Source of the DNA: an uncultured Clostridia bacterium | GTDB lineage: Bacteria; Bacillota; Clostridia; Christensenellales; UBA3700 | Direction of reading: 5' to 3' | DNA length: 64,000 bases | Assembly (NCBI GenBank): GCA_947037025.1 | Contig: CAMQSU010000005.1 | Location: 6,353 to 70,352, forward strand | In this document: positions 6,873 to 59,093 of the stretch, in pieces | Layout of the letters: every line of letters begins with the position of its first letter | Position numbering within the stretch: the stretch's first letter is position 1 | Notes under the pieces: generated by a model | Seen by the model: only the letters and a program-made list of their open reading frames with translations | Database searches by the model: none | Told to the model about the DNA's origin: nothing | Position numbers and translations under genes: made by a program

Positions 6873-7691
6873 ATGAGCAAAATCAAATTATTAATCGTAG
6901 ATTGTGATGTTGAAAATGGTGGACGTAGTGCAAAAGAATTAAGTAGTGATTTTATTGAAGTAATCGGTATTGCTACTGATGGTCAAGAATGTCTTGAGAT
7001 GATGAAGACGCGTGATATTGATGTAATATTGACTGAGTTAGTTCTTCCAATGTATGACGGATATGCGATTCTTGAAGCTGCAGCAGCAGGCGTGGACATG
7101 CCAAAGATTCCAAAGATTTTTGTTATGTCTAAGCTTATGGGTGAGGGGTATATTAATAAGGCTATGAAATTAGGTGCTTCTTATTATTTCTTTAAGCCTT
7201 GTAATTATTCGTATGTTAGCACTATTATGAAAAATGCAATGGAAAAAGATCCGTTTGCTGAGTATTTAAATGAAGGACAAGGCGATGTAAAAGGTTCATT
7301 AGGCGTTGAGGGCATGAAGACTATGAATACTCGTAATCATCACCCAATAGAGGAGAAAATAGCTAAAATATTTATCTCTGTTGGCATACCAGCACACATA
7401 AAAGGCTATCAATTTTTGAGGTCTGCAATCAAGCTTGTAGTAGCAAAACCGGAGATGATTAACAGCATCACAAAGCAGTTATATCCTGGTGTTGCAGAAA
7501 TATATAATACTAGCGCAAGCAAAGTTGAAAGGGCAATCAGACACGCAATAGAAGTTGCTTGGAATAGAGGAAAATTAGATAATATTAACAGGCTTTTTGG
7601 CTTCAAGATTTATAGTGCAAACGAGAAACCTACTAACGGTGAGTTTATAGCATTAGTAGCGGATAAACTAATGGTAGATAGTACATATTGA
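6873..7691 (+). CDS. spo0A: sporulation master regulator Spo0A (atypical receiver domain)
   Basis: The C-terminal domain carries the Spo0A-specific blocks GIPAHIKGYQFLRSAI, SKVERAIRHAIEVAWNRG and KPTNGEFIALVADKL. The N-terminal CheY-like receiver has Glu55 at the phospho-acceptor position (see findings). Confidence 0.9.
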   Translation: MSKIKLLIVDCDVENGGRSAKELSSDFIEVIGIATDGQECLEMMKTRDIDVILTELVLPMYDGYAILEAAAAGVDMPKIPKIFVMSKLMGEGYINKAMKLGASYYFFKPCNYSYVSTIMKNAMEKDPFAEYLNEGQGDVKGSLGVEGMKTMNTRNHHPIEEKIAKIFISVGIPAHIKGYQFLRSAIKLVVAKPEMINSITKQLYPGVAEIYNTSASKVERAIRHAIEVAWNRGKLDNINRLFGFKIYSANEKPTNGEFIALVADKLMVDSTY

Positions 7692-8056: not shown

Positions 8057-8641
8057 ATGCCAATTTACAGAAAGTGTCCTAGATGCGAGTTGAATTACAT
8101 TTTGCACGAAAAAGATTATTGTGATGTTTGCCTTTTGGAATTAAAGGGCGTTGATATTCACGCTGCTGATGTTGATGATTCGCTATGTCCAGGGTGTCAT
8201 GAAATTTATCTTGAACCGGGCGAAGTGATGTGTTCTGCCTGTGCGCTAAAAGCACGCGGAGCTAAAGCAAAGGCAGAAGTGGAAGAGGACGAAGTGGAGC
8301 CAGGAAGCCGCCTTGCGAATATGACTGAGGAAGAGGATTGGGATGCTGATGCAGATTCGACTTTTGATACACCATCAGTCATTGATGATACTGAATCCTT
8401 CGTTGATGACGGCGACTATGAAGACGAAGATTATGAAGACGAAGATTATGATGAAGAAGCTAATGAAATCCTTGAAGAAGGCGCAGTAGTAGAAGTCGAT
8501 GATTTTGAGGAAGTGTTACTAGGTCTTGATGACTTAGATGATGATGACTTAGACGATGATGATTTTGACGAAGATGAGCTTGAAATGGATTTAGATGATT
8601 TAGGCAGTGAGCTTGGATTAGATGAGGAAGATTACAAATAA
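8057..8641 (+). CDS. double zinc-ribbon protein with long polyacidic C-terminal tail
   Basis: The 194-aa product has two CxxC-x11-CxxC units (C7/C10/C22/C25 and C44/C47/C59/C62) followed by about 120 residues dominated by D/E. A GGAGGG RBS is present and a strong terminator lies downstream. Confidence 0.6.
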   Translation: MPIYRKCPRCELNYILHEKDYCDVCLLELKGVDIHAADVDDSLCPGCHEIYLEPGEVMCSACALKARGAKAKAEVEEDEVEPGSRLANMTEEEDWDADADSTFDTPSVIDDTESFVDDGDYEDEDYEDEDYDEEANEILEEGAVVEVDDFEEVLLGLDDLDDDDLDDDDFDEDELEMDLDDLGSELGLDEEDYK

Positions 8642-9153: not shown

Positions 9154-9242
9154 TAACCTAATTCCTCTAATATATTTAAAGAGATAATGCAGGGCGGAAG
9201 GTGTTGCTAATGCTCGCACTAATATTTATTTTTGGAGGCAAG

Positions 9243-10766
9243 ATGATGGAGAATGAGTTAGATTTCTTAGAAATGAAAAATGAGTCTGTGGTAAAGTATG
9301 GTAAGACATCTGCAACTGCGCAATGTAATATTGACAGTTCAGCAAAAGGTGGTGTATCTAAGCTGCTATCGGTAACAAGTAGCGTTGCAAGTGCAAGCGT
9401 TGAGAGAGCTGGTGATGTATGCAAAGTAACAGCTACGCTAAATTGCAAGGTTATATTTGTAAACCATGATGGCGAAATGGATAGCTATGACTATTTAAGT
9501 GAGTTTTCTACAATGGTATCTGGCGATGTGAAAGTTGCAGATAGCATGGTTCAAATGTGGGCAATGTGCAATGTGCTTGATGTTGACAGTAGCGTACGAG
9601 GTGATTTGATTGCAGTGCAGTCAGTTATTAGTATTGAAGTAGTGGGCGTATGTGCTACTACTTGCAAGTGCATAGCAAATACTGATGAGGATACTCTTGT
9701 AAAGACAGAGAGCGTTCCATGTCAGCTTGCTACAATCCTTCGTGATACTTTCAGTATTGATGAGGACTATGAGAGCGGTGCGGATATTGAAAAGATTTTA
9801 TTCTTTGATTCATCATGTATCGTAACAGGCACTCAGGCAAATGAGGGCAAGGCAATGGTTAGCGGAACATTATGCTCAACAGTTGTGTACATGGCTGATG
9901 GCAAACTTTGCTCTAAATCGTTCAACATTCCATTCGCTGAGGAAATTGCAATGGCAGGAATGTGCGAGTGTGATAAGCTAGCTGTTTCCGTTATGGTGTC
10001 AGATAGCAAAATTGTTATCAGTGGAGTTGAGGGGGATAATGTATTATGTCTTCAGTTTGAGCTTGTATGTAATGGTATTTGTTACATTACAGAGTCACAA
10101 ACAGTTATTCTTGATATGTACTCACCAAACCATAAGTTAGAGATGGAGTATTGTGAGAGTAATTACAATGAGTATCTAGGACAAACATCACTATCTGATA
10201 AGATTATCGGCAGTGCGGAACTTGCAGAAGACATTGCACCAGCACATAAAATCCTTGCAACTACAATTAGTAGGCAAGTTGTCGCAAATACATATATTGA
10301 TAACGGCATGATGATGGTAGAAGGTCTGCTTGCGTGCAACGTGATTTATGAGGATGCAAACGGCGATTGCTGCTCTATCATGGTAGAGCTTCCTTACAGC
10401 TTGCAGTTTGACGGTGCAAGTTACGATGAGAGTGCTAGCTATATCTGTGAGAGCATGATTGAGCAGCTTTACTCTAAAATTAAGCGTGACCGTGAAATAG
10501 AAGTTACTGCAATGATCAGTTTATATGTAATGTGTGATAAGCCAATGACTACTAAATGCGTATGCAATTATGCTAAGGGGGAGGAGATTTGTGCGGAAGA
10601 ATATGGAATGAGCATATATCACTCTACTGAAGGCGAGAGCTTGTGGGATATTGCTAAAGTCATGAACGCGCCAATGCATGAGCTTGCAAGACAGAACGCA
10701 AACTTAGAGGACGGCTCACGTGGTCAAAATGTGGTATATTACAGACAGCTTAAAAAGTCTGTATAA
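9243..10766 (+). CDS. SPOCS (DUF3794) repeat protein with C-terminal LysM domain, SipL/SpoVID-like spore-coat morphogenetic protein
   Basis: The size and architecture resemble C. difficile SipL: repeated beta-rich Cys-containing modules and a C-terminal LysM-like block (YHSTEGESLWDIAKVMNAPMHELARQN). I moved the start to the ATG at 9243/9246, behind GGAGG (9234-9238), rather than the track start at 9201. Confidence 0.65.
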   Translation: MMENELDFLEMKNESVVKYGKTSATAQCNIDSSAKGGVSKLLSVTSSVASASVERAGDVCKVTATLNCKVIFVNHDGEMDSYDYLSEFSTMVSGDVKVADSMVQMWAMCNVLDVDSSVRGDLIAVQSVISIEVVGVCATTCKCIANTDEDTLVKTESVPCQLATILRDTFSIDEDYESGADIEKILFFDSSCIVTGTQANEGKAMVSGTLCSTVVYMADGKLCSKSFNIPFAEEIAMAGMCECDKLAVSVMVSDSKIVISGVEGDNVLCLQFELVCNGICYITESQTVILDMYSPNHKLEMEYCESNYNEYLGQTSLSDKIIGSAELAEDIAPAHKILATTISRQVVANTYIDNGMMMVEGLLACNVIYEDANGDCCSIMVELPYSLQFDGASYDESASYICESMIEQLYSKIKRDREIEVTAMISLYVMCDKPMTTKCVCNYAKGEEICAEEYGMSIYHSTEGESLWDIAKVMNAPMHELARQNANLEDGSRGQNVVYYRQLKKSV

Positions 10767-47237: not shown

Positions 47238-47654
47238 ATGAATAGAGTAATGTCATTAGACTTAGGAGATGTTAGAATAGGCGTGGCAATGAGCGACCTT
47301 TTAAAGATAATTGCAAATGGCTATGAAACATATAAAAAAGTAGGCGGGGACAAGGATATAGCGTATATAACAGCATTAGCAGTGGCTAATGAGGTGGATA
47401 CAATCGTTATAGGATTGCCAATCAACATGGACGGAACGAGCGGAGTTAGAGTAGAGAAAACTTATGCTTTTGCAGACAAATTGCGAGAGCAAACTCAAGC
47501 AAAGATAGTGTTTCAAGATGAGAGATTGACGACAGTCAGTGCGGAGAGAATGCTAATTGAAGGGAATGTTAGACGTGATAAACGCAAGACAGTGATTGAC
47601 AAAATAGCCGCAACAATCATATTACAGCAGTACTTAGATACAGTTAGATTTTAA
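47238..47654 (+). CDS. ruvX: Holliday junction resolvase-like nuclease RuvX (YqgF)
   Basis: The 138-aa product has LDLGDVRIGVAMSD at the N-terminus and DERLTT...A. An AAGGAG RBS is present. Confidence 0.9.
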   Translation: MNRVMSLDLGDVRIGVAMSDLLKIIANGYETYKKVGGDKDIAYITALAVANEVDTIVIGLPINMDGTSGVRVEKTYAFADKLREQTQAKIVFQDERLTTVSAERMLIEGNVRRDKRKTVIDKIAATIILQQYLDTVRF

Positions 47655-47804
47655 CAAACATGCATAAATGTAATAATTATGCGAATAATTAGCAAAAGTG
47701 ATAAGAAATTAAAGTAAAATATATGTTTATATTCAAATTTCTATTGACTTTATTTACTTTTTATAATATCATTATAATATCAAATCAACAGGAGGTCATG
47801 AAAA

Positions 47805-48224
47805 ATGGCAGAGTTAGATCAAGAGATGGAAATGGATGTGGATGTAATCACATTATTAGATATGAACAACAATGATGTTGATTTTTATCATGTAGCAACA
47901 ATAGATTATGAAGATAAATGGTATGTATTTTTACAGCCAGTAAAGCCTATCGATGGAATCGGTGAGGATGAAGTTATTATATATGAGCTAGGACTGGACG
48001 ACGAAGGAGACGATAAGTTTATCCCAATCGAGAATGACGAGCTATTAGATAAGATATTCCAAGAGTATGTAAGCCAATCTGAATCAGATGAAGAGAGTGG
48101 CGACGATTGCGGTTGTGATGACGGCGGATGCGGCGACGGTGGTTGCGGTTGTGGTGACGGCGGCAGCAAAGAAGAAAAGAAATCTTCATGCGGTGGCAAT
48201 TGCGGATGTGGAGATAAGAAGTAA
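47805..48224 (+). CDS. DUF1292 (YrzB-like) protein with Cys/Gly-rich C-terminal tail
   Basis: The N-terminal roughly 95 aa follow the DUF1292 pattern (ITLLD..N..V.FYHVATIDYEDKWYVFLQP...DEVIIYEL......FIPIENDELLDKIFQEY). The position directly after ruvX matches B. subtilis yrrK-yrzB. The tail has 8 Cys in the last 41 aa. Confidence 0.75.
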   Translation: MAELDQEMEMDVDVITLLDMNNNDVDFYHVATIDYEDKWYVFLQPVKPIDGIGEDEVIIYELGLDDEGDDKFIPIENDELLDKIFQEYVSQSESDEESGDDCGCDDGGCGDGGCGCGDGGSKEEKKSSCGGNCGCGDKK

Positions 48225-48278
48225 TTAACAATTTTGTGTAGACAACACTCTACAATAAGGTTGTAATTTCGATAATAA

Positions 48279-48310
48279 AAGGAGCGAGTAGCGATACTCA
48301 CTCCTTTTTG
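48279..48310 (+). terminator. rho-independent terminator
   Basis: Stem aaaggagcgagta / tactcactccttt with one mismatch, followed by tttt. Confidence 0.75.
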
Positions 48311-48581
48311 CATGAAAACAGCAGATTGATTGTGTCCAATCATGTTAAAATCCATATATCAGCAAAAGCAACGTAGAAAATAATAATAATGATAATTTTT
48401 ATAATCTTGAATGATGATATATTAAGGATATAAAAAATTTAATATTATAATAAAATACTTTTAATATTATAATATATATATAGTGGTGGTGAATAAGCAG
48501 TATTACCGCATGATAAAACACTCGTTATTAATTGACAAAAATGCAAAAAAGTGATATTCTTAAAAAGTATATGGAGGCAAG

Positions 48582-49517
48582 ATGTCTAAAAAGAATAATT
48601 ATGAAGAAAAAGATGTAAAAGCAAAAATTGATTCATTTATGCCAGATAAGGCAACTGATGATCCAAAGCAGATACTTAAAAGTGACAAAAAGATATTTAG
48701 TTCAGTATTTATTTCGATAATAACATTAATGATTATCGGGTGGTTTATCAGCGTCATAATCGGGTTTGTAGAAGGCCCTGTGGAGGGTGTGAGAGCGCTC
48801 TTTATTGGAAGTATAGCAACAAGCGTAATATTGTTGCTAACAACGTTAATTATATCAATGGCGCACAATATGTCAAGAACTACAAAAGCGACGATGATAA
48901 TGTGTCAAAAGATATTAGAGTATGAGGAAGAAGATAAAAAGAAGTTAAGTGAAAATGCTGATATAAATAATGCTAGCGAAGTAATGAGTAACGCATCAAA
49001 TTCACCAATAAATAAAGTTATTAATGCAAGCAATAATAACTTGCAAAACCAAAATAATACAATGTCAAATAATGCAAATCAACAAATGGATAATAATCAA
49101 AATATGAATAATAACCAAAACAACACAATGTCAAATAATGCAAATCAACAAATGGATAATAACCAAAACATGAATAATAATCAAAACAACACAAGTCAAA
49201 ATTTCGACAACCAAAGCTATCAAAACCCAGCAAGCGAAAATTTTGAAAATGGAAATATGACAAATGAAAACAACAACAATTTGCCGGAAAATTATATAAA
49301 TGAAAATAACGTTAATAATAGTTATAGTAGTCAAAATCAGGGCGAAGATTGTAACAATTATGATCAAAATTATAACTATTCAGATTATAATCAAGGGGAG
49401 TATCGTGGCGATTACAATGGCTATGAGCAAGCTAGCGGCGAGCAGTATAATAATGAGCATCAAGAAGAAAACGGCAATAATTATAGAGTAAACAATAATA
49501 ATCAAGAAAGAAACTAA
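48582..49517 (+). CDS. membrane protein with long Asn/Gln-rich low-complexity C-terminal domain
   Basis: A GGAGG RBS is present. The product has two hydrophobic helices (IFSSVFISIITLMIIGWFISVIIGFV and ALFIGSIATSVILLLTTLIISMA) followed by about 190 residues dominated by N and Q. Confidence 0.6.
   Translation: MSKKNNYEEKDVKAKIDSFMPDKATDDPKQILKSDKKIFSSVFISIITLMIIGWFISVIIGFVEGPVEGVRALFIGSIATSVILLLTTLIISMAHNMSRTTKATMIMCQKILEYEEEDKKKLSENADINNASEVMSNASNSPINKVINASNNNLQNQNNTMSNNANQQMDNNQNMNNNQNNTMSNNANQQMDNNQNMNNNQNNTSQNFDNQSYQNPASENFENGNMTNENNNNLPENYINENNVNNSYSSQNQGEDCNNYDQNYNYSDYNQGEYRGDYNGYEQASGEQYNNEHQEENGNNYRVNNNNQERN
49059..49202 (+). repeat. 66-bp tandem repeat (two full units plus a partial third)
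   Basis: Units start at 49059 and 49125 (acaatgtcaaataatgcaaatcaacaaatggataataa...), each encoding TMSNNANQQMDNNQNMNNNQNN. A partial third copy starts at 49191. Confidence 0.85.
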
Positions 49518-49603
49518 TTAGCAAATAGAATTAAAGCGGCTAAAAACAACGTTACTAAAATTTTACATGTAAAATTATAGTAATATTTATGAATAATCTA
49601 TGT

Positions 49604-49636
49604 AATGACTTAGGGAAGCCTAAGTCATTTCTATTC
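49604..49636 (+). terminator. terminator after the N/Q-rich protein gene
   Basis: An 11-bp stem aatgacttagg / cctaagtcatt with a GAAG loop. The T tract is weak (tctattc). Confidence 0.7.
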
Positions 49637-49694
49637 AATTTGCTTGTCAATACGCAACAAAAGCATAGATTTTCTATTATATATATTAATTTAT

Positions 49695-49723
49695 TTGACA
49701 CACACGCGTTATTAGTGTATAAT
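49695..49723 (+). promoter_or_regulatory. consensus sigma-A promoter of rpoBC
   Basis: TTGACA (49695-49700), 17-nt spacer ending in TAGTG, TATAAT (49718-49723). A leader of about 130 nt contains two hairpins. Confidence 0.6.
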
Positions 49724-49855
49724 CAAATATTGTAGTATGCGAAATTTCGGCATTTATAGTGCTTAGGGGTTTCGCAGTATGTTTTCTTGTATAAATTGCC
49801 TAATTAGGCGGCTATACAAAATTATTATTTAGATTAATCGGAAGGAGAGTGCAAT

Positions 49856-52800
49856 ATGTCGAATATTCACAAAGTTAATTATGGTAACGTAGAGAGAAAG
49901 TCTTTTAGCAAAGTAGCTGAAACTCTTGAAATACCGTATTTTATCGCTTTGCAAAAGGATTCTTACAAAGATTTCATTGAGCATGGTATCAAGAAAGTCC
50001 TAAAGGATTCTTCTCCTATTTGCGATCACGCAGGTAGGATGGAACTTCATTTCTTAGACTCATATTTTGAGGATAAGCCAAAATACTCTATCAAAGAGTG
50101 CAAGGACAGAGACGCAACTTATGCGGTGCCTCTGAAAGTGAAAGTTCGTCTTATTAAAAAAGACGCGGATAATAACCCAGTAATCACTGATACTGAAGTG
50201 TTTATGGGCGATTTCCCTCTAATGACTGATAGCGGATCATTTATCATCAATGGTGCGGAGCGAGTAATCGTATCGCAGCTAGTTCGTTCACCAGGTATTT
50301 ACTGCGGTAAGTCTGTTGACAAGAATGGTATTGATAGATTTGAGACAACAGTTATACCTAGCCGTGGAGCATGGCTTGAATTTAAGCAAGATGTTAATGA
50401 CATTTTATACGTATCTGTTGACAGAAAGCGTAAGATGCCAGCGACTACTCTTATGCGTGCTCTGGGATTCGGAACTAACAGTGACCTAATTGAGTTATTT
50501 GGTGAGAGCCCAATGCTTGCCGCAACAATCAAGAAAGACTCGACTAACGGATGTGATGACGCTAAAATTGAGCTTTACAAAAAGCTAAAGACTGGCGAGG
50601 TTGCAACTATAGAGGGTATTAATACACTAATCAACAACACTCTTTACGATCCAAAAAGATATGACACTCAACGTGTAGGTAGATACAAGTTTAACAGAAA
50701 GCTTAGTATTGCAGCACGAATTACAGGATACACTGCAGCGGCTGATGTTATCAGTCCTGACGGTGAGATTTTCGCATCAAAAGGCGATGTAATCCTAGCA
50801 GAAGTTGCAAAGAATATCCAGAATGCAGCAATCAACGAAGTATTACTAGTTAATGCAAACGGTGATGGCGGAACTACAAAGATAATCGGTAACAAGAATG
50901 TTGATATCGAGGCTTTTGTTGGCGTTAGCCGAGATGAGCTTGGAATCAACGAGATGGTTTACTACCCAGTACTAGAGCAGCTTATGAAAGACTTCTCTGG
51001 TGATGAGCTTATCGAGCAAATAAAGTTAAACGCTAAAAACTTAGTGGTATTGCATGTAACACTTGATGATGTTATTGCAACAATGTGTTATAGTTTATCA
51101 CATAACTTCGGCTTCGGAACTGTAGACAATATCGATCACTTAGCAAACAGACGTGTACGTGCTGTCGGCGAGCTTTTGAGAAACCAATTACGTATCGGAC
51201 TTGTTAGACTTGACAAGGTTATTAAAGAGCGTATGAGTGTTACTCAAGATGATGGCGAGCAAACTGCACAATCTTACATAAACATTAAACCTGTGACAAG
51301 CGTAATCAAGGAGTTCTTCTGTTCTTCTCAGCTATCACAGTTCATGGATCACCATAACCCAATCGCGGAGCTAGCTCATAAGAGAAGGCTTTCAGCACTA
51401 GGACCTGGTGGACTTAACAGAGAGTGTGCGGGTTTCGAAGTTCGTGACGTGCATCACTCACACTATGGTAGAATGTGTCCGATAGAAACTCCCGAGGGAC
51501 AGAACATCGGATTGATATCTTCACTTGCAACATTTGCACGTGTAAACGAATACGGATTTATCGAGGCGCCTTACCGCAAAGTTGATAAGTCTAACGAAGA
51601 TAAGCACATCGTAACTCATGATGTACATTATTTGCAAGCTGATGAAGAGGATAAATACGTAATAGCACAAGCAAGTGTTGCGCTAAATCCGGATGGTTCT
51701 TTTGCAAGCAAGCGTGCGGTATGCCGTATCCGTGAGGATATCCGTGAAACTGAAAGTTCTAGAGTTGATTATATCGACGTTAGTCCAAAGCAGTTGGTAT
51801 CAGTAGCAGCAGCGCTTATCCCATTCCTTGAGAATGACGATACATCACGTGCACTGATGGGTTCAAACATGCAGAGGCAGGCAGTGCCTCTAATCAAAAC
51901 AGATTCACCAATTATAGGTACTGGTATTGAGCACCGTATCGCACTTGATAGTGGCGCATGTCATGTATCAAAGCGTGATGGTGAAGTAAGTTATGTTGAT
52001 GGAACTCGCATCGTTGTCACTGGTGATGATGGTATTAATGATGAGTTTATCATGCGTAAGTTTGAGCGTTCAAATCAAAGCACATGCGTAAATCAACGCC
52101 CAATAGTTAATGTTGGACAACGAGTTAGCCGTGGCGAGATAATCGCTGATGGTCCAGCAACTTCTAAGGGAGAGCTAGCACTAGGTAAAAACATTCTTAT
52201 CGGCTTCATGTCATGGGAAGGTTACAACTATGAGGATGCGATTCTAATTAGTGAGGACTTAGTTAAAGATGATATATTCACTTCAATCCATATTGAGGAG
52301 TATGTAATCGAATCTCGTGATAGCAGATTAGGTGCGGAGCAAATCACTCGTGATATCCCTAACTTAAGTGATGATATGATTAAAAACCTTGATGAGGAAG
52401 GAATTATCCAAGTGGGTAGTGAAGTTCGCTCACAAGATATATTAGTTGGTAAAGTTACACCAAAGGGCGAGGCGGATCCTACTCCAGAGGAGAGGTTACT
52501 TCGTGCAATGTTCGGTGAGAAATCTCGTGATGTTCGCGATACTTCTCTAAGACTTGATAACGGACAACATGGCGTAGTAGTAGATGTTAAAGTCTTTACT
52601 CGTGCAAATAAAGATGAGTTATCTCCAGGCGTTAAAATGAAAGTTGTAGTATACGTTGCACAAAAACGTAAGCTAGGCGTAGGAGATAAGATGGCGGGTC
52701 GTCACGGAAATAAGGGTGTAGTATCAAGGGTTTTACCTAAAGAAGATATGCCATTTATGGAAGACGGAACACCACTTCAAATAGTTCTTAATCCACTAGG

Positions 52801-53746
52801 AGTTCCTTCACGTATGAATATCGGACAGGTACTTGAGGTGCATTTGGGTTATGTTGCTAAGCTACTTGGCTGGAAGATTGAAACTCCAGTATTTGATGGC
52901 GCATCAGAGCATGACATTAAAGAATTACTTGAGGAAAACAGCCTTGACGTTGACGGAAAGCTACAGCTTTACGATGGAAGAACAGGCGAAAAATTTGAAA
53001 ACCGCGTAACAGTAGGTTACATGTATATGCTAAAACTTATCCATCTAGTTGATGATAAAATCCATGCACGTGCAACAGGTTCATACTCACTAATCACTCA
53101 ACAACCACTAGGCGGAAAAGCCCAGTTCGGTGGACAGAGATTCGGAGAGATGGAGGTTTGGGCACTAGAGGCATACGGTGCATCACGTATCTTGCAGGAG
53201 ATTCTGACAGTTAAGTCGGATGACGTTGAAGGTAGAACTAATATTTATAACGCAATCGTTAGCGGAAATCCTATCTGTGAGCCAGGAATACCTGAGTCTT
53301 TCAAGGTACTTATCCGTGAGTTCAGGTCACTATGTCTTGATGTTCGTGCTCTTAACGAGAACCGCGATGAAATCAGCCTAGATACATATAGCGCTAAGCT
53401 AAATATGCGTCAAGAAGTTGATAATCGTGAGCTTAAAGAGGTTTCAATCGGCTTTGCTGAAGGAAGTGAGGAGCTTGACATATTCGGTAGCGACGTTTCT
53501 GATGACTTTGCGTCAATGGGAGACGATGCCGCAGATGAGGATATCTTCGGTTTCACAATGGAATCAGACGAAGCAGATGATAGTGATTTTGATGGTAGCG
53601 AGTTGTTCGACATTGGTTCAAGCGATGACGCTTCAGCTAATGACGAAGCTGCTGAGAATGATGATATCTTCGGTATCAATGATACTGAAACTGATACTGA
53701 TGCTAGCGCTGAGTTAGTTATCAATTTAGACTCAGATAATGAGTAA
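49856..53746 (+). CDS. rpoB: DNA-directed RNA polymerase subunit beta (with 121-aa acidic C-terminal tail)
   Basis: The 1296-aa product has canonical blocks throughout, for example [50 protein letters not shown] and [18 protein letters not shown]. Confidence 0.97.
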
Positions 53747-53760
53747 TTGGAGGTTAAGTA

Positions 53761-56700
53761 ATGTTCGAGTTAAATAACTTTAGTTCAATACAAATAGGTG
53801 TAGCCTCTCCAGAGAAAATTCGTGAGTGGTCTAAGGGCGAAGTAGTTAATGGCGAAACTATTAATTACAGAACTCAAAAACCTGAAAAAGGCGGTCTTTT
53901 CTGTGAGATTATCTTCGGACCTATCCGCAGTGGCGAGTGTAGTTGCGGCAGATACAAAAAGAAGTATACAGGCACAGTCTGTGATAAATGTGGCGTTCTA
54001 GTTACTGATAGTAAAGTACGTCGTGAGCGTATGGGACATATCGAGCTAGCTGCACCAGTATCACATATTTGGTACTATAAAGGTGCACCTAGTGCAATCG
54101 CAATGTGTCTTGACGTAGCCGTTAAAGAGCTTGACGATGTATTATATCTTAATAAATTTATCGTAATTGATCCAGGTAAAACTGAGTTTACATATAAGCA
54201 AGTAATCAACGATGAGCTATACCGTGAGGCGGTAGCAGAGTATGGCCGTAACAGCTTTAAGGCTGCTATGGGAGCTGCCGCAGTTAAAGAGCTTTTAGCT
54301 GTAATCGACCTTGATGCAGAGTCAGAAAAGTTGAAGAAAAATGTTGCTGTTTTTGAAGGTGCGAAAAAGCTTAAAGCTGCTAAAAGACTTGATTTTATCG
54401 AGTCATTTAGACTAAGCGGAAACCGCCCTGAGTGGATGGTACTTGATGTAATTCCAGTAATCCCACCAGAAATCAGACCAATGGTACCACTAGATGGTGG
54501 TAGATATGCGGCATCTGATCTTAACGATTTATATCGTAGAGTAATCAACCGTAACAAACGTTTGAAAAAGCATATCGAGCAGGGCGCTCCAGATCTAGTT
54601 GTTCGTAACGAGAAAAGAATGCTTCAAGAAGCAGTCGATGCGTTATTTGATAATGGCCGTCGCGGCAAAGCAACTACAGGTCCAGGTGGGCGTGAGCTTA
54701 AATCATTAACAGGCATGCTAAAAGGTAAACAAGGACGTTTCCGTCAAAACCTTTTAGGTAAGCGTGTTGATTATTCAGGCCGTTCTGTTATCGTCGTTGG
54801 TCCAGAGCTTAAAATGTATCAATGTGGACTACCTAAGGAGATGGCTTTAGAGCTTTTCAAACCTTTCGTAATCAAAAAATTAGTAGAGTACAATCACTGC
54901 GCAAACATCCGTGTTGCTCGTAAATTCGTTATGAAAGCGACAACAGCAGTATGGAATATTTTAGAGGACGTAATCAAGGACCATCCAGTTCTTTTAAACC
55001 GTGCTCCGACTTTGCATAGACTTGGTATCCAAGCCTTTGAACCTATCCTTGTAGAAGGTCGTGCTATTAAACTTCATCCACTTGCTTGTGGTGCGTTCAA
55101 TGCCGATTTCGATGGAGATCAAATGGCGGTACATGTACCACTAAGTTTAGAGGCACAAGCTGAGGCAAGATTCCTAATGCTTGCAACAAACAATATCCTA
55201 AAACTTTCTGATGGTAATCCTATCGTTGCCCCTTCACAGGATATGGTAATAGGAGCATACTACTTATCTATTGACAGAAATGCACTAGTTAAGAAAGAGG
55301 ATAATACTATTGAGGAAGTTGAGGCAAGTCAGTATTTTGCACGTATCAAAGAGGGCGAAAATTTAAAGCTTAGAGCTTTCAAAAGTTTTAACGAAGCATT
55401 GATGGCATATCAGCTAAAAGAAATTGGTCTTCAAGATATCGTTTCAATCCGTCGTGAGATGAATGTTGAAATTGATGTATACGGAACAAAAATCAACAAG
55501 CTTTATTCAAAAAATATTATCTCAACAGTAGGTAGATTTATCTTTAACGAAGCGATTCCACAGGATTTAGCATTCACTAAGAGATATGATCAAAATAAGG
55601 ATATCTGTACGGACGAGACAAGCAGCGATTATAACAATCCGCTACTTAACTTAGACCTTGAGATAGACTTCCTTGTAGGCAAAAATCAGCTATCAAGAAT
55701 AGTTGAAAATTGTTTCAAATACAAGGGCGCTACAGAAACTGCAACAGTACTAGATAAAATCAAATCATTAGGATTCAAGTATTCAACTATCGGTGCAATA
55801 ACAACATCAGTATTTGATATGCACATTCCAGATGAGAAGTATGTTATCGTTGCTGATGCGGAGAAGAAAATTCTTGAAATCGAGAAGAAGCACCGTCGTG
55901 GTCTTCTAACTGAGAATGATAGATATAATCAAGTAATTGATACATGGACAAAGGCAAAGGACGAGGTTAATAACCTGCTAGAAGGCGGCGCATTAGGCAA
56001 GTTCAACCCAATATACATGATGGCGGATTCTGGTGCCCGTGGTAGCATGAGACAGATAGCGCAGTTATGTGGTATGCGTGGACTAGTAGCAAATACAGCA
56101 GGTAAAACAGTAGAGCTTCCAATCAAGTCAAACTACCGTGAGGGATTATCAGTACTAGAGTACTTTACATCTTCGCATGGTGGACGAAAAGGTCTTGCGG
56201 ATACAGCACTAAAAACAGCGAACTCAGGATACCTAACACGTAGATTAGTTGACGTTGCACAAGATTGTATTATTAATGAAGAAGATTGTTTAGATACAAA
56301 GGGCTTTATCGTTACTGCAATAATGGCAGCCGATAGTAGCAAGCCACTTGAGCCTATCAATGACAGAATCAGAGGTCGTATATGTATGGATGATATCGTA
56401 CACCCAGAAACGGGCGAGATAATTATCCCAGCAAATAGCATGCTTACTAAAGATGAAGCAATAGAAGTTGAGGCTGCAGGCGTTAAGTCAGTACGTATCA
56501 GAAGTATGCTATCATGTAGATCAAAGCACGGCGTATGTGCAAAGTGTTATGGTGCTAATATGGCATCAAACAACATTGTTAAAATCGGTGAGGCCGTCGG
56601 CGTAATCGCAGCACAGTCAATCGGTGAGCCAGGAACTCAGCTTACAATGAGAACGTTCCATACCGGTGGTATCGCAACAGCTGATGATATTACACAAGGT

Positions 56701-57621
56701 CTACCACGTGTCGAGGAGCTTTTTGAGGTTCGCCGTCCAGGTGGAGAGGCAATACTATCAGAGATTGATGGTAGCGTATATCATGACAAAGAGAAACGAG
56801 TTATCACTATTACTATGAGTAATGGCGAAACTAAAGAATACAAGTATAATCACGGCCAAAAAGTTACTGTTGAAAATGGTGACAAGGTCGAAGCGGGCAC
56901 ACCACTTACAAAAGGTAGTGTATTCCCACAAGATATGCTAAGAACTCGTGGAGTTAAGGGTGTTCAGGACTACCTAATTAAGGAAGTTCAGTCAGCATAC
57001 CGTACATCAGGTGTTCAAATCAATGATAAGCATACAGAGATTATCATTCGTCAAATGCTAAGAAAAGTTCGTATAGAAACTCAGGGCGACACTGATATGT
57101 TGACTGGTGATTTATACAATATCTTCAAATATGAGGATAACAATGAAAAAGCTCTTGTAGCTGGTGGCGCGCCAGCAACGGCTAAGCGTACACTACTAGG
57201 AATTACTAAAGCATCACTTGCTACAGATTCATTCCTATCAGCAGCATCATTCCAGGAAACTGCAAAGGTTCTAACGAATGCGGCTATCAAAAACAAGACA
57301 GATTACCTTGTAGGACTAAAAGAGAATGTACTACTAGGCAAAGTTATCCCAGCAGGAACTGGTATGAAATGTTACCAAAATGTAGATGCAACTTTTGTTG
57401 ATGGTCTTGACCTTAACATTAATGAGTCTGATGAGTACATTGATTATGAGGGACTAGATTTGGAGCAAGGCGAAACTTCACAAGAAGATGTAGCAAGCTA
57501 TATTAAAGAGATGGGCGACATAGAAACTTCAGCATTTGCAGGTTTAACTGTTGCAGAAGAGGAAAAAGCCGTTACTTCTTTAGATGAATTATTCTCATTC
57601 GGAAACAAAGAAAAAGAGTAA
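53761..57621 (+). CDS. rpoC: DNA-directed RNA polymerase subunit beta-prime (with 78-aa acidic C-terminal tail)
   Basis: The 1286-aa product has the zinc-binding CSCGRYKK...CDKCGV block, the catalytic [12 protein letters not shown] block, and the trigger-loop region [16 protein letters not shown]. Confidence 0.97.
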
Positions 57622-57734
57622 TTAAAACAAGCTTTAATAACCAATTGTTATATTATGCACTTCAGAAATAACAAACAGTTATAAAAGGTAGCTGCAAAAG
57701 ATGTGGCAAAAAACAAAAGTTAACAAAATTTAAT

Positions 57735-57838
57735 AAATCTATTGTGAGTTACAGGAGGGATCGGACCCGTTAATTGTACAGCAACCGACTTTGTGAGGTG
57801 CTAATTTCCGCAAGATTAAATCTTGGAAGATAGAGTGA
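57735..57838 (+). promoter_or_regulatory. SAM-I (S-box) riboswitch aptamer
   Basis: The conserved S-box blocks are present in order: TCTAT..GAG...GGAGGGA.CGGACCCG.....CAGCAACC......GGTGCTAATTTCCGCA......GAAGATAGA. The aptamer lies upstream of metK. Confidence 0.85.
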
Positions 57839-57851
57839 TTATATAAACTAT

Positions 57852-57884
57852 AAGACTACTATCGAAAGATGGTAGTCTTTTTGT
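57852..57884 (+). terminator. riboswitch expression-platform terminator
   Basis: A 12-bp stem aagactactatc / gatggtagtctt with a GAAA loop, followed by ttt, 30 nt before the metK ATG. Confidence 0.85.
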
Positions 57885-57914
57885 AACAAGACAATATAAA
57901 ATGGAGAAAGACAA

Positions 57915-59093
57915 ATGAATAGAAGATTTTTTACAAGTGAGAGTGTTACGGAAGGACACCCAGATAAATTATGTGATAAAGTATCAGATAGCGTATTAGA
58001 TGCAATCTATGCGCAAGATAAAATGGCGAGGGTTGCGTGCGAAACTTGCTGCAACACAGGCTTTGTAATGGTAATGGGCGAAATATCAACTACAGCAGTA
58101 GTGGATATTGCCGATGTAGTTAGAAAAGCTGTATGTGATATCGGATATGACAATAGCGAAGTAGGATTTAACGGCAACACATGCGCCGTTATGCTTAGCA
58201 TTGATAAGCAATCTCCTGATATCGCACTAGGTGTAGATAACAGTGTTGAGGTTAGAGATGGCGGGGATAAAAATGATCAAAACGGTGCAGGCGATCAAGG
58301 AATGATGTTTGGTTATGCAACTAACGAAACAGATTCACTAATGCCAATGCCAATTTATCTAGCGCACAAATTATCTGCAAAACTAACTGAAGTTAGAAAG
58401 TCAAAGCAGTTAACATACTTGCGTCCTGATGGCAAAACTCAAGTTACTATTGAGTATATTGATGACAAACCAAGCAGAGTTGATGCGGTAGTAGTATCTA
58501 CTCAGCACAGCGAGGATGTCGATTTAGAAACTATCAGACGCGACATTAAAGAGCATGTAATTATGCAGGTTATACCAGCTAATTTGATTGATGAAAATAC
58601 TAAATTCTACATTAATCCTACTGGCAGATTCGTCGTTGGCGGGCCTGCTGGCGATAGCGGTCTTACTGGACGAAAGATTATTGTTGATACTTACGGCGGA
58701 TATTGCCCTCATGGCGGTGGAGCGTTTAGCGGAAAAGACCCAACAAAAGTTGATAGGTCAGCTGCGTACATGGCAAGACACGTTTGCAAAAATATCGTAG
58801 CAAGTGGCATTGCTGATAAATGTCAGCTTGATATTGCATATGCAATCGGAGTTGCAAAACCTGTATCAGTTCAAGTAAATACTTTTGGAACAAGCAAGTA
58901 CAATAATGAGCAAATTCAATTTATTATTGACAAGGTTTTTGACCTTCGCCCATCTGCGCTAATTGAATATCTAGGACTTAGAGCTCCGGTATATGCAAAA
59001 ACATCTAATTACGGACATTTTGGCCGTGATGGATTTAGCTGGGAAGCGACAAATAAAGCAAAAGAAATCGCACAAATTGCGAAAACACTTTAA
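57915..59093 (+). CDS. metK: S-adenosylmethionine synthetase
   Basis: [46 protein letters not shown] and [16 protein letters not shown] are all present. Confidence 0.96.

Follow-up and report, generated by a model that had tools for sequence, protein, structure and literature searches.

A long acidic C-terminal tail with repeated Phe-centred motifs on the RNA polymerase beta subunit of an uncultured Clostridia bacterium

The DNA analysed here (the window, 64,000 nucleotides (nt) long, from contig CAMQSU010000005.1) comes from an uncultured Clostridia bacterium, and its rpoB gene encodes an RNA polymerase (RNAP) beta subunit with a long acidic C-terminal tail, which is the subject of this report. 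The rpoB coding sequence was assigned from the list of open reading frames (ORFs) together with Pfam and NCBIfam profiles. Pfam recognises six Rpb2 domains in RpoB, the last of which, RNA_pol_Rpb2_7, stops at amino acid (aa) 1166, and the NCBIfam profile NF001616 covers aa 13-1165 with 1604.6 bits (cut-off 896), with TIGR02013 scoring 1607 bits. The full-length matches to equivalog profiles and the set of Rpb2 domains place the protein in the RpoB family, and the tail (aa 1176-1296) lies outside every profile. The conserved end of RpoB (...NENRDEISL) stops at 53380. The first-pass annotation, made from the letters of the window, had proposed a 121-residue acidic C-terminal tail at 53381-53743, and both translation and the profile ends at aa 1165-1166 confirm it. 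The gene, the tail and the features within and just beyond it are as follows.

49856-53746 (+): rpoB coding sequence, 1296 aa including the tail, with the stop codon TAA at 53744-53746.
53381-53743 (+): acidic C-terminal tail of beta, 121 codons, aa 1176-1296, predicted to be disordered, without family-profile cover.
53429-53443 (+): ELKEV island 5' of motif 1, consensus E-L-x-E-[VI]; tail residues E17, L18 and E20 are invariant in an alignment of 10 tails.
53471-53494 (+): motif 1, ELDIFGSD, with its Phe at aa 1210; all 10 diverged tails in the alignment keep F-G.
53534-53557 (+): motif 2, DEDIFGFT, with its Phe at aa 1231; relatives align as D-D-[ILM]-[FL]-[GNDS]-F.
53597-53620 (+): motif 3, SELFDIGS, with its Phe at aa 1251; L-F-D-I is kept in the subclade at 77-90% identity.
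53657-53680 (+): motif 4, NDDIFGIN, with its Phe at aa 1272; relatives align as D-[IL]-F-[GDE]-I-G.
53726-53743 (+): conserved acidic C-terminal end, LDSDNE; relatives end in LDS[DE]NE or in ends of the DDKE/DDEE type.
53749-53763 (+): ribosome-binding site (RBS) of rpoC, GGAGG at 53749-53753, and its ATG at 53761, 14 nt past the rpoB stop, read from the sequence.

The tail contains 41 Asp and Glu residues versus 4 Lys and Arg residues, which gives a net charge of -37; 34% of its residues are acidic and 38% are Ser, Thr, Gly, Ala or Asn. In a charge-hydropathy plot it falls among disordered chains, far from the boundary. The last 296 aa of RpoB were modelled twice with AlphaFold2 (AF2), at a mean predicted local distance difference test (pLDDT) score of 36 and 51, with even the conserved part modelled poorly out of context. 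AF2 gave no fold for the tail (block-mean pLDDT 37-51, the whole model being of low confidence), and its lone helical turn, three residues long, fell at SEL of motif 3. From composition, with no fold predicted, we infer that the tail is disordered. All four octapeptides read in the tail by the first-pass annotation translate exactly as written and lie where it had placed them. The spacing of about 20 residues that it described holds in the window (Phe-to-Phe distances of 21, 20 and 21 residues) and is lost beyond the nearest relatives, P0002 and P0003. When the tail was shuffled 200,000 times with its composition preserved, four matches to [DE][IL]F[GD] were reached once, which is not a strict probability since the pattern was set after seeing the data; the 1175-aa body of RpoB has a single match.

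An open frame by itself is no proof of the tail, because this region is open in other frames too, with an ORF of 99 aa on the + strand and one of 104 aa on the - strand. This would be in keeping with an artefactual extension, whether from a frameshift in sequencing, from misassembly or from read-through. However, the identical 1296-aa RpoB is found on four metagenome contigs, which come from at least two independent ENA assemblies. In addition, the GC content of the tail region (0.41) is in line with the rest of rpoB, as expected of sequence native to the gene, and a read-through artefact is disfavoured because the spacing of the rpoB stop, the RBS and the rpoC start is normal for an operon. 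The RpoB proteins of relatives (90, 88, 79 and 77% identity, the most distant being at 65%) measure 1216-1297 aa, and every one of these is acidic-tailed (52-117 aa). The nearest named relatives are Clostridia, with Christensenellales-like matches at approximately 68% identity. The first-pass annotation had named a frameshift, or absence of the tail from all close relatives, as grounds for giving the tail up, and the alignment of related RpoB proteins supports neither of these.

We also estimated the ratio of nonsynonymous to synonymous substitution rates (dN/dS) between the window rpoB and four relatives. With synonymous sites saturated in these comparisons (dS of about 1 or more), dN/dS was 0.03-0.06 in the RpoB body and 0.20-0.29 in the tail, and within the tail it was 0.08-0.15 at motif codons versus 0.20-0.35 in the remainder. 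The frame has therefore been kept down to 65% identity while synonymous change reached saturation and dN/dS stayed below 0.3, which speaks against an artefact. Our data indicate that the tail is translated in this frame and is under purifying selection, strongest at the motifs. On this comparative sequence evidence we regard the artefact reading as already refuted and give it virtually no chance.

In alignments of diverged tails, conserved islands are surrounded by drifting sequence. Motif 1 takes the form [LIV]-[DNG]-[IV]-F-G, motif 2 the form D-D-[ILM]-[FL]-x-F, and motifs 3 and 4 the form [DE]-[LI]-F-D-I-G or D-I-F-G-I, with the acidic end closing the chain. The residues around the Phe are biased across the 92 motif instances found in 31 dereplicated tails: Asp is favoured at position -2 (2.4 times background), Leu and Ile at position -1 (6.4 and 6.3 times), Gly (5.5 times) or Asp at position +1, and Ile, Phe and Leu at position +2 (3.7, 1.7 and 1.5 times, respectively). 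These tails hold one to five motifs each, separated by gaps of 4-42 residues, and contain 87 matches to [ILMV]F[GDESN] versus 18.7 +/- 4.1 after shuffling, a comparison that is uncorrected for shared ancestry. The consensus in the clade is D-[LI]-F-[GD]-hydrophobic, with copy number, spacers and tail length all drifting around it. Motifs that are kept while spacers, length and copy number drift are the pattern expected of a selected short linear motif, and the tails combine the features by which such motifs are recognised in ELM-type definitions, i.e., conserved islands, enrichment, lower dN/dS at the motif, a disordered-type composition and a copy number of 1-5. Our data indicate that the pattern is a selected short linear motif array in a disordered region, and we are highly confident that the tail is real, selected, motif-bearing and disordered.

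This selection at the level of the motif bears on whether the tail is a solubility tag, an entropic bristle or an assembly aid whose motifs have no binding role. Acidic tails commonly keep large proteins soluble, and the wide variation in tail length and sequence would suit such a role, but neither purifying selection on the motifs nor their position preferences would be expected from it, and we consider it most unlikely. As to the origin of the motifs, Tandem Repeats Finder (TRF) gave only a 6-nt microrepeat, and the direct DNA repeats within the tail are short (12-25 nt) and diverged (64-81% matching), so that we found no recent DNA duplication behind the motifs and rejected recent tandem duplication as their source.

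Several known motif identities were tried and rejected. The motifs do not match the beta sliding-clamp motif QL[SD]LF, since they lack Gln at position -4 and an aliphatic preference at position -3; over the 92 instances, position -4 is Asp, Glu, Gly or Ala and position -3 is Asp or Gly, with Leu at 1.1 times background. Motif 1 (ELDIF) alone resembles the clamp-binding pattern, with Glu replacing Gln. The tip of SSB, D-D-D-[IL]-P-F-COOH, was rejected since the motifs are internal, lack Pro and carry Gly or Asp after the Phe, and the chain ends in ...LDSDNE. A tandem repeat of the kind found in the C-terminal domain (CTD) of RNA polymerase II (Pol II) was likewise rejected, there being no fixed period in the TRF output, the 64-81% DNA repeats or the 4-42 residue gaps of the clade. 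An EF-hand-like reading of a 12-residue stretch failed by eye at positions 8 and 12.

We next describe how widely such tails occur, based on a survey of 79 species-level genomes; among the 80 loci listed in the GTDB scan there was no genome of the same species as the window. The three groups compared were the following, with tail length counted from the conserved end of the protein.

Clostridia-type Bacillota (n=48): tail median 71.5 aa (25-121), 44% acidic and 4% basic, median net charge -30.
Bacilli (n=11): tail median 42 aa (19-49), median net charge -10, motif in 0 of 11.
Other phyla (n=20): tail median 0 aa, most being without a tail, motif in 0 of 20.

Tails of the Clostridia type are longer (p = 7e-7) and more negative (p = 1e-6) than those of Bacilli. 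The motif occurs 35 times in the 48 Clostridia-type tails versus 14.9 +/- 3.6 times after shuffling, with shared ancestry uncorrected, and these occurrences fall in 22 of the 48 tails. The beta chains of solved Clostridial RNAPs (Clostridioides difficile, 7l7b; the sigmaI open complex, 8i23) also carry acidic tails with one xLF[DE] each, and the C. difficile tail contains a DDLFEE element. The first-pass annotation had held that a tail of this kind is absent from known RpoB proteins, and this did not stand: RpoB of Bacillota normally ends in an acidic tail, as it does in both of these structures. The window tail is among the longest and most clearly motif-organised of the tails compared.

An acidic tail as such is thus ordinary for Clostridia and seems to be unstudied. 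We found no paper that describes the beta tail, although an earlier description in catalogues of RNAP insertions or in subscription journals is possible, and the D-[LI]-F-[GD] array on beta, echoed on beta', appears to be undescribed in the literature searched. A word-indexed protein search with the tail alone returned 16 candidates, none of them significant, because a low-complexity tail shares too few exact words. We also compared a profile built from 10 aligned tails with 1.84 billion representative sequences, a library clustered at 50% in which RpoB itself is hidden. This gave three matches only, of which two are miscalled C-terminal RpoB fragments from the same clade and the third, to a 2990-aa YadA-like adhesin, is spurious and arises from a repeated SQLFAVG. 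Among these 1.84 billion representatives, the profile therefore did not find the tail module in any other protein family.

The acidity of the tail had been likened by the first-pass annotation to the acidic C-terminal domain of the Firmicutes delta subunit (RpoE). Clostridia have been reported to contain helD and to lack rpoE, save for species that are really Erysipelotrichia, while Bacilli carry delta (PMC8655204). In Bacillus subtilis, the C-terminal region of delta, with a net charge of -47, sits in the main channel together with the HelD bumper in a position incompatible with DNA (PMC7749165). We found that the B. subtilis delta CTD (checked against PDB 7f75_L) is 72% Asp and Glu, carries -0.70 charges per residue, contains 1% Ser, Thr, Gly, Ala and Asn, and is without the hydrophobic-F-[GD] motif. 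The window tail carries -0.31 charges per residue and falls short of the near-pure Asp/Glu composition (approximately 70%) of such a domain. Neither Pfam nor NCBIfam finds a folded N-terminal delta domain in RpoB, and the tail directly follows the beta clamp. The likeness to delta is therefore only partial: it stands for the polyanion of disordered type, is weak in composition (34% versus 72% acidic residues, 38% versus 1% Ser, Thr, Gly, Ala and Asn) and does not extend to the motif. The two are further alike in being disordered polyanions attached to a Bacillota RNAP with complementary occurrence. They differ in that delta is a separate subunit anchored on beta' by its folded N-terminal domain, with a CTD that follows a Lys tract, whereas the window tail is fused to the beta C-terminus and organised by motifs. 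A delta-like function is possible for the tail, but it does not belong to the delta family.

One other protein in the window resembles delta in composition. The ORF at 8057-8641 (+), just downstream of spo0A, encodes 194 aa with an N-terminal double zinc ribbon (CPRC..CDVC, CPGC..CSAC; Pfam DZR below cut-off) and an extremely acidic tail of approximately 125 aa, in which the best 40-aa window is 60% Asp and Glu; it belongs to no NCBIfam family. In composition, this tail comes nearer to the C-terminal region of delta than that of RpoB does. It is the only strongly acidic small protein within the 64-kb window and, being a zinc-ribbon protein, was rejected as a candidate for delta.

The distribution of long negative beta tails is complementary to that of delta. 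A functional analogy to delta is indirectly supported by this, because long negative beta tails occur where delta has been reported absent, and such tails would fit a functional replacement of delta in a lineage reported to be without it. The tail might then be a purely electrostatic mimic of nucleic acids, equivalent to the delta CTD, in which the motifs are incidental or tune compaction. The complementary distribution, the far more negative charge of Clostridia-type tails, the poor conservation of the remainder of the tail and the position of the delta C-terminal region in the main channel (PMC7749165) are all consistent with such a role. However, the motif residues are more constrained than other tail residues, the motif is over-represented 4-5 times relative to composition, and the delta CTD lacks the motif. 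Pure mimicry is also a weak fit for the window tail because its acidity is half that of delta, as is its charge density, and because it is rich in Ser, Ala, Gly, Asn and Thr. We judge this explanation to be improbable.

We hypothesize instead that the tail is a docking leash anchored by its Phe residues. The beta C-terminus lies beside the N-terminus of beta' and its zinc-binding domain, with the RNA exit and the upstream DNA close by, and a flexible leash would leave the RNAP core at this point. A 121-residue chain could reach most of the enzyme surface. A beta-beta' fusion at the beta C-terminus is feasible, as in a published recombinant C. difficile RNAP construct in which beta is joined to beta' via a linker. 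In each motif, the Phe and the aliphatic residue before it would enter a hydrophobic pocket with a basic rim, and the Gly or Asp after the Phe would permit close approach. That an aliphatic residue is so strongly favoured before the Phe, and Gly behind it, suggests insertion of the Phe into a defined hydrophobic pocket, and we consider it somewhat better than an even chance that the motifs work by docking their Phe into a protein pocket. Several weak footholds along one acidic chain would sum to avidity. As the receptor we favour a nucleic-acid-binding surface, which could belong to RNAP or to a factor associated with it (e.g., HelD), only slightly ahead of a separate soluble partner. The tail would then be a built-in counterpart of the acidic region of delta that competes with weakly bound DNA or RNA and thereby aids recycling and promoter selectivity. 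Such delta-like competition with nucleic acids is a tentative suggestion and rather doubtful as the outcome, and the mechanism as a whole, from Phe-anchored leash to delta-like effect, we hold to be plausible at a little under an even chance.

A similar motif lies on the other large subunit of the enzyme.

57424-57618 (+): acidic C-terminal extension of RpoC, approximately 65 residues, net charge -16.
57583-57603 (+): terminal RpoC motif DELFSFG, which resembles the RpoB tail motifs (translation checked).

RpoC proteins of close relatives contain similar motifs of the form (D/E)x-hydrophobic-F-[SAD] near the C-terminus, with ends such as SLDELFAGIG..., EDDLFSLTEDEE, EEELFADDLFKVEE and DDAFNFNIEE, and further DDDMFSFDSDEE, ENIDLFADLYNKE and ENIDIFAQEEEDLF. 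The RpoC tails of other Clostridia are mostly short and without the motif.

In the close clade, a similar motif on the RpoC tail leaves the enzyme at another place. Such an arrangement would suit a docking platform to which separate soluble proteins are recruited, for example a factor for elongation, termination, repair or RNA processing. The acidic spacers would then mainly be a flexible, non-sticky linker, and the motif copies would hold either a number of partner molecules or a single oligomeric partner, in the manner of the Pol II CTD or SSB tails. Such a platform also agrees with the motif being kept while spacers, copy number and spacing vary, with Gly being strongly favoured after the Phe as in Phe-Gly pocket-insertion motifs, and with the tail being less acidic than true nucleic-acid mimics. 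Yet no candidate partner emerged, the motif is unlike both bacterial hub motifs tested (clamp-binding and SSB tip), about half of the wider Clostridia-type tails are without the motif, and in the rpoB neighbourhoods of relatives no gene co-varies with the tail. We regard a docking platform of this kind as possible, with a probability well below even. A related proposal is that the beta array and the single beta' C-terminal copy together would form a multivalent recruitment platform, a bacterial counterpart in function to the CTD of Pol II or to the SSB hub, that brings one or more as yet unrecognised factors to the transcribing Clostridia RNAP and replaces accessory subunits such as delta; we offer it as a speculative and on balance unlikely possibility.

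Motifs on both large subunits, and multivalent aromatic residues in a disordered chain, might also be read as stickers and spacers, i.e., as Phe stickers on acidic spacers that would drive or tune RNAP condensates with basic partners (ribosomal proteins, nucleoid proteins or polyamines). The literature treats condensate formation by bacterial RNAP (PMC13060160). The high net negative charge opposes self-association, however, and the flank preferences (Asp at -2, Gly at +1, Ile at +2) suggest a defined pocket and not generic stickiness, and we consider this explanation very improbable. Electrostatics, condensate stickers and an entropic bristle all fit the selection on the motifs less well than docking does.

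Several points weigh against a Phe-anchored leash with a delta-like outcome. The AF2 models are of low confidence throughout and add little on disorder. At 34% acidic residues and rich in Ser, Ala, Gly, Asn and Thr, the tail is unlike the delta CTD. The regularity of about 20 residues is confined to P0002 and P0003, with gaps of 4-42 residues over the 31 tails, the enrichment in these tails takes no account of shared ancestry, and no more than 22 of the 48 wider Clostridia-type tails carry the motif. The tail would also escape standard tryptic proteomics: the last Lys or Arg of RpoB is aa 1194, with no Lys beyond it, which leaves a C-terminal tryptic peptide of 102 residues. Furthermore, no receptor, partner or intramolecular site emerged from our sequence-level analysis. 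Multivalent docking, as the first-pass annotation had suggested, is thus borne out in part: motifs that are kept while spacers diverge point to a functional and probably multivalent short linear motif, but no partner came with it.

The proposed leash shares features with several known systems. The tails of SSB (with its DDDIPF tip) and phage T7 gp2.5 have two functions, the docking of partner proteins and, by folding back, competition with nucleic acid for the protein's own binding surface; they are likewise disordered and acidic with a hydrophobic or aromatic anchor. Their anchor, however, is single and lies at the extreme C-terminus with a free carboxylate (D-D-D-I-P-F), whereas the window tail has four internal motifs without Pro and with Gly or Asp after the Phe. 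The CTD of Pol II Rpb1, a multivalent docking platform, is also a repetitive disordered tail on a large RNAP subunit that exits near the RNA exit. It differs in lying on the beta' homologue, in its strict YSPTSPS heptads (26-52 copies), in its regulation by phosphorylation and in not being intrinsically acidic; tails of the window type have 1-5 motifs with variable, diverged spacers and share no homology with it. In the Phe-Gly (FG, GLFG) repeats of nucleoporins, hydrophobic-F-G cores are similarly spaced on a disordered chain, and each Phe enters a shallow hydrophobic pocket with low affinity, the sum giving avidity. Nucleoporin repeats are eukaryotic, with mostly uncharged or polar spacers and tens of copies, and the resemblance is one of form only. 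Region 1.1 of sigma70 and the 'expander' of RNA polymerase I (Pol I) A190 are acidic elements of the polymerase or tightly bound to it, as the tail is, and fill the DNA-binding cleft when DNA is absent. Unlike the tail, region 1.1 is a folded sigma domain and the expander an internal loop, and neither has a repeated Phe motif.

Bacterial RNAP is usually described as a compact core regulated by separate factors. With a conserved, disordered tail that bears motifs, the catalytic beta subunit would hold a regulatory or docking element of its own, one missed by structural work because of its disorder. Such tails are widespread in the class to which C. difficile and many gut commensals belong. They could account for the ability of Clostridia to do without delta, and they may affect in vitro work with recombinant Clostridial RNAP.

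The remaining observations concern the neighbouring genes. Within RpoC (53761-57621, +), a weak Peptidase_M23-like match of the barrel-sandwich type at aa 992-1049 divides Rpb1_5 in two, which points to an insertion, specific to this lineage, within the trigger-loop region of beta'. In the interval 47238-59093, rpoB-rpoC lies between ruvX, a DUF1292 gene and an Asn/Gln-rich gene upstream and metK downstream, without the usual rplJ-rplL in its flanks, and this gene order is kept down to 77% RpoB identity. The DUF1292 protein (47805-48224, +) has a Cys/Gly-rich C-terminal tail, CGCDDGGCGDGGCGCGDGGSKEEKKSSCGGNCGCGDKK, that is possibly metal-binding, and DUF1292 genes are also found at this position in relatives. 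The gene at 48582-49517 (+) encodes a 311-aa protein without a Pfam family, probably membrane-bound (judged by eye from a hydrophobic N-terminal stretch), whose C-terminal half is Asn/Gln-rich and contains the near-perfect repeat NTMSNNANQQMDNNQNMNNNQN twice; among close relatives, the gene at this position varies in length and content. Elsewhere in the window, spo0A (Spo0A_C and receiver domain) lies at 6873-7691 (+) and a gene for a SipL/SPOCS-domain protein at 9201-10766 (+), and the presence of these two genes suggests that the organism forms spores.

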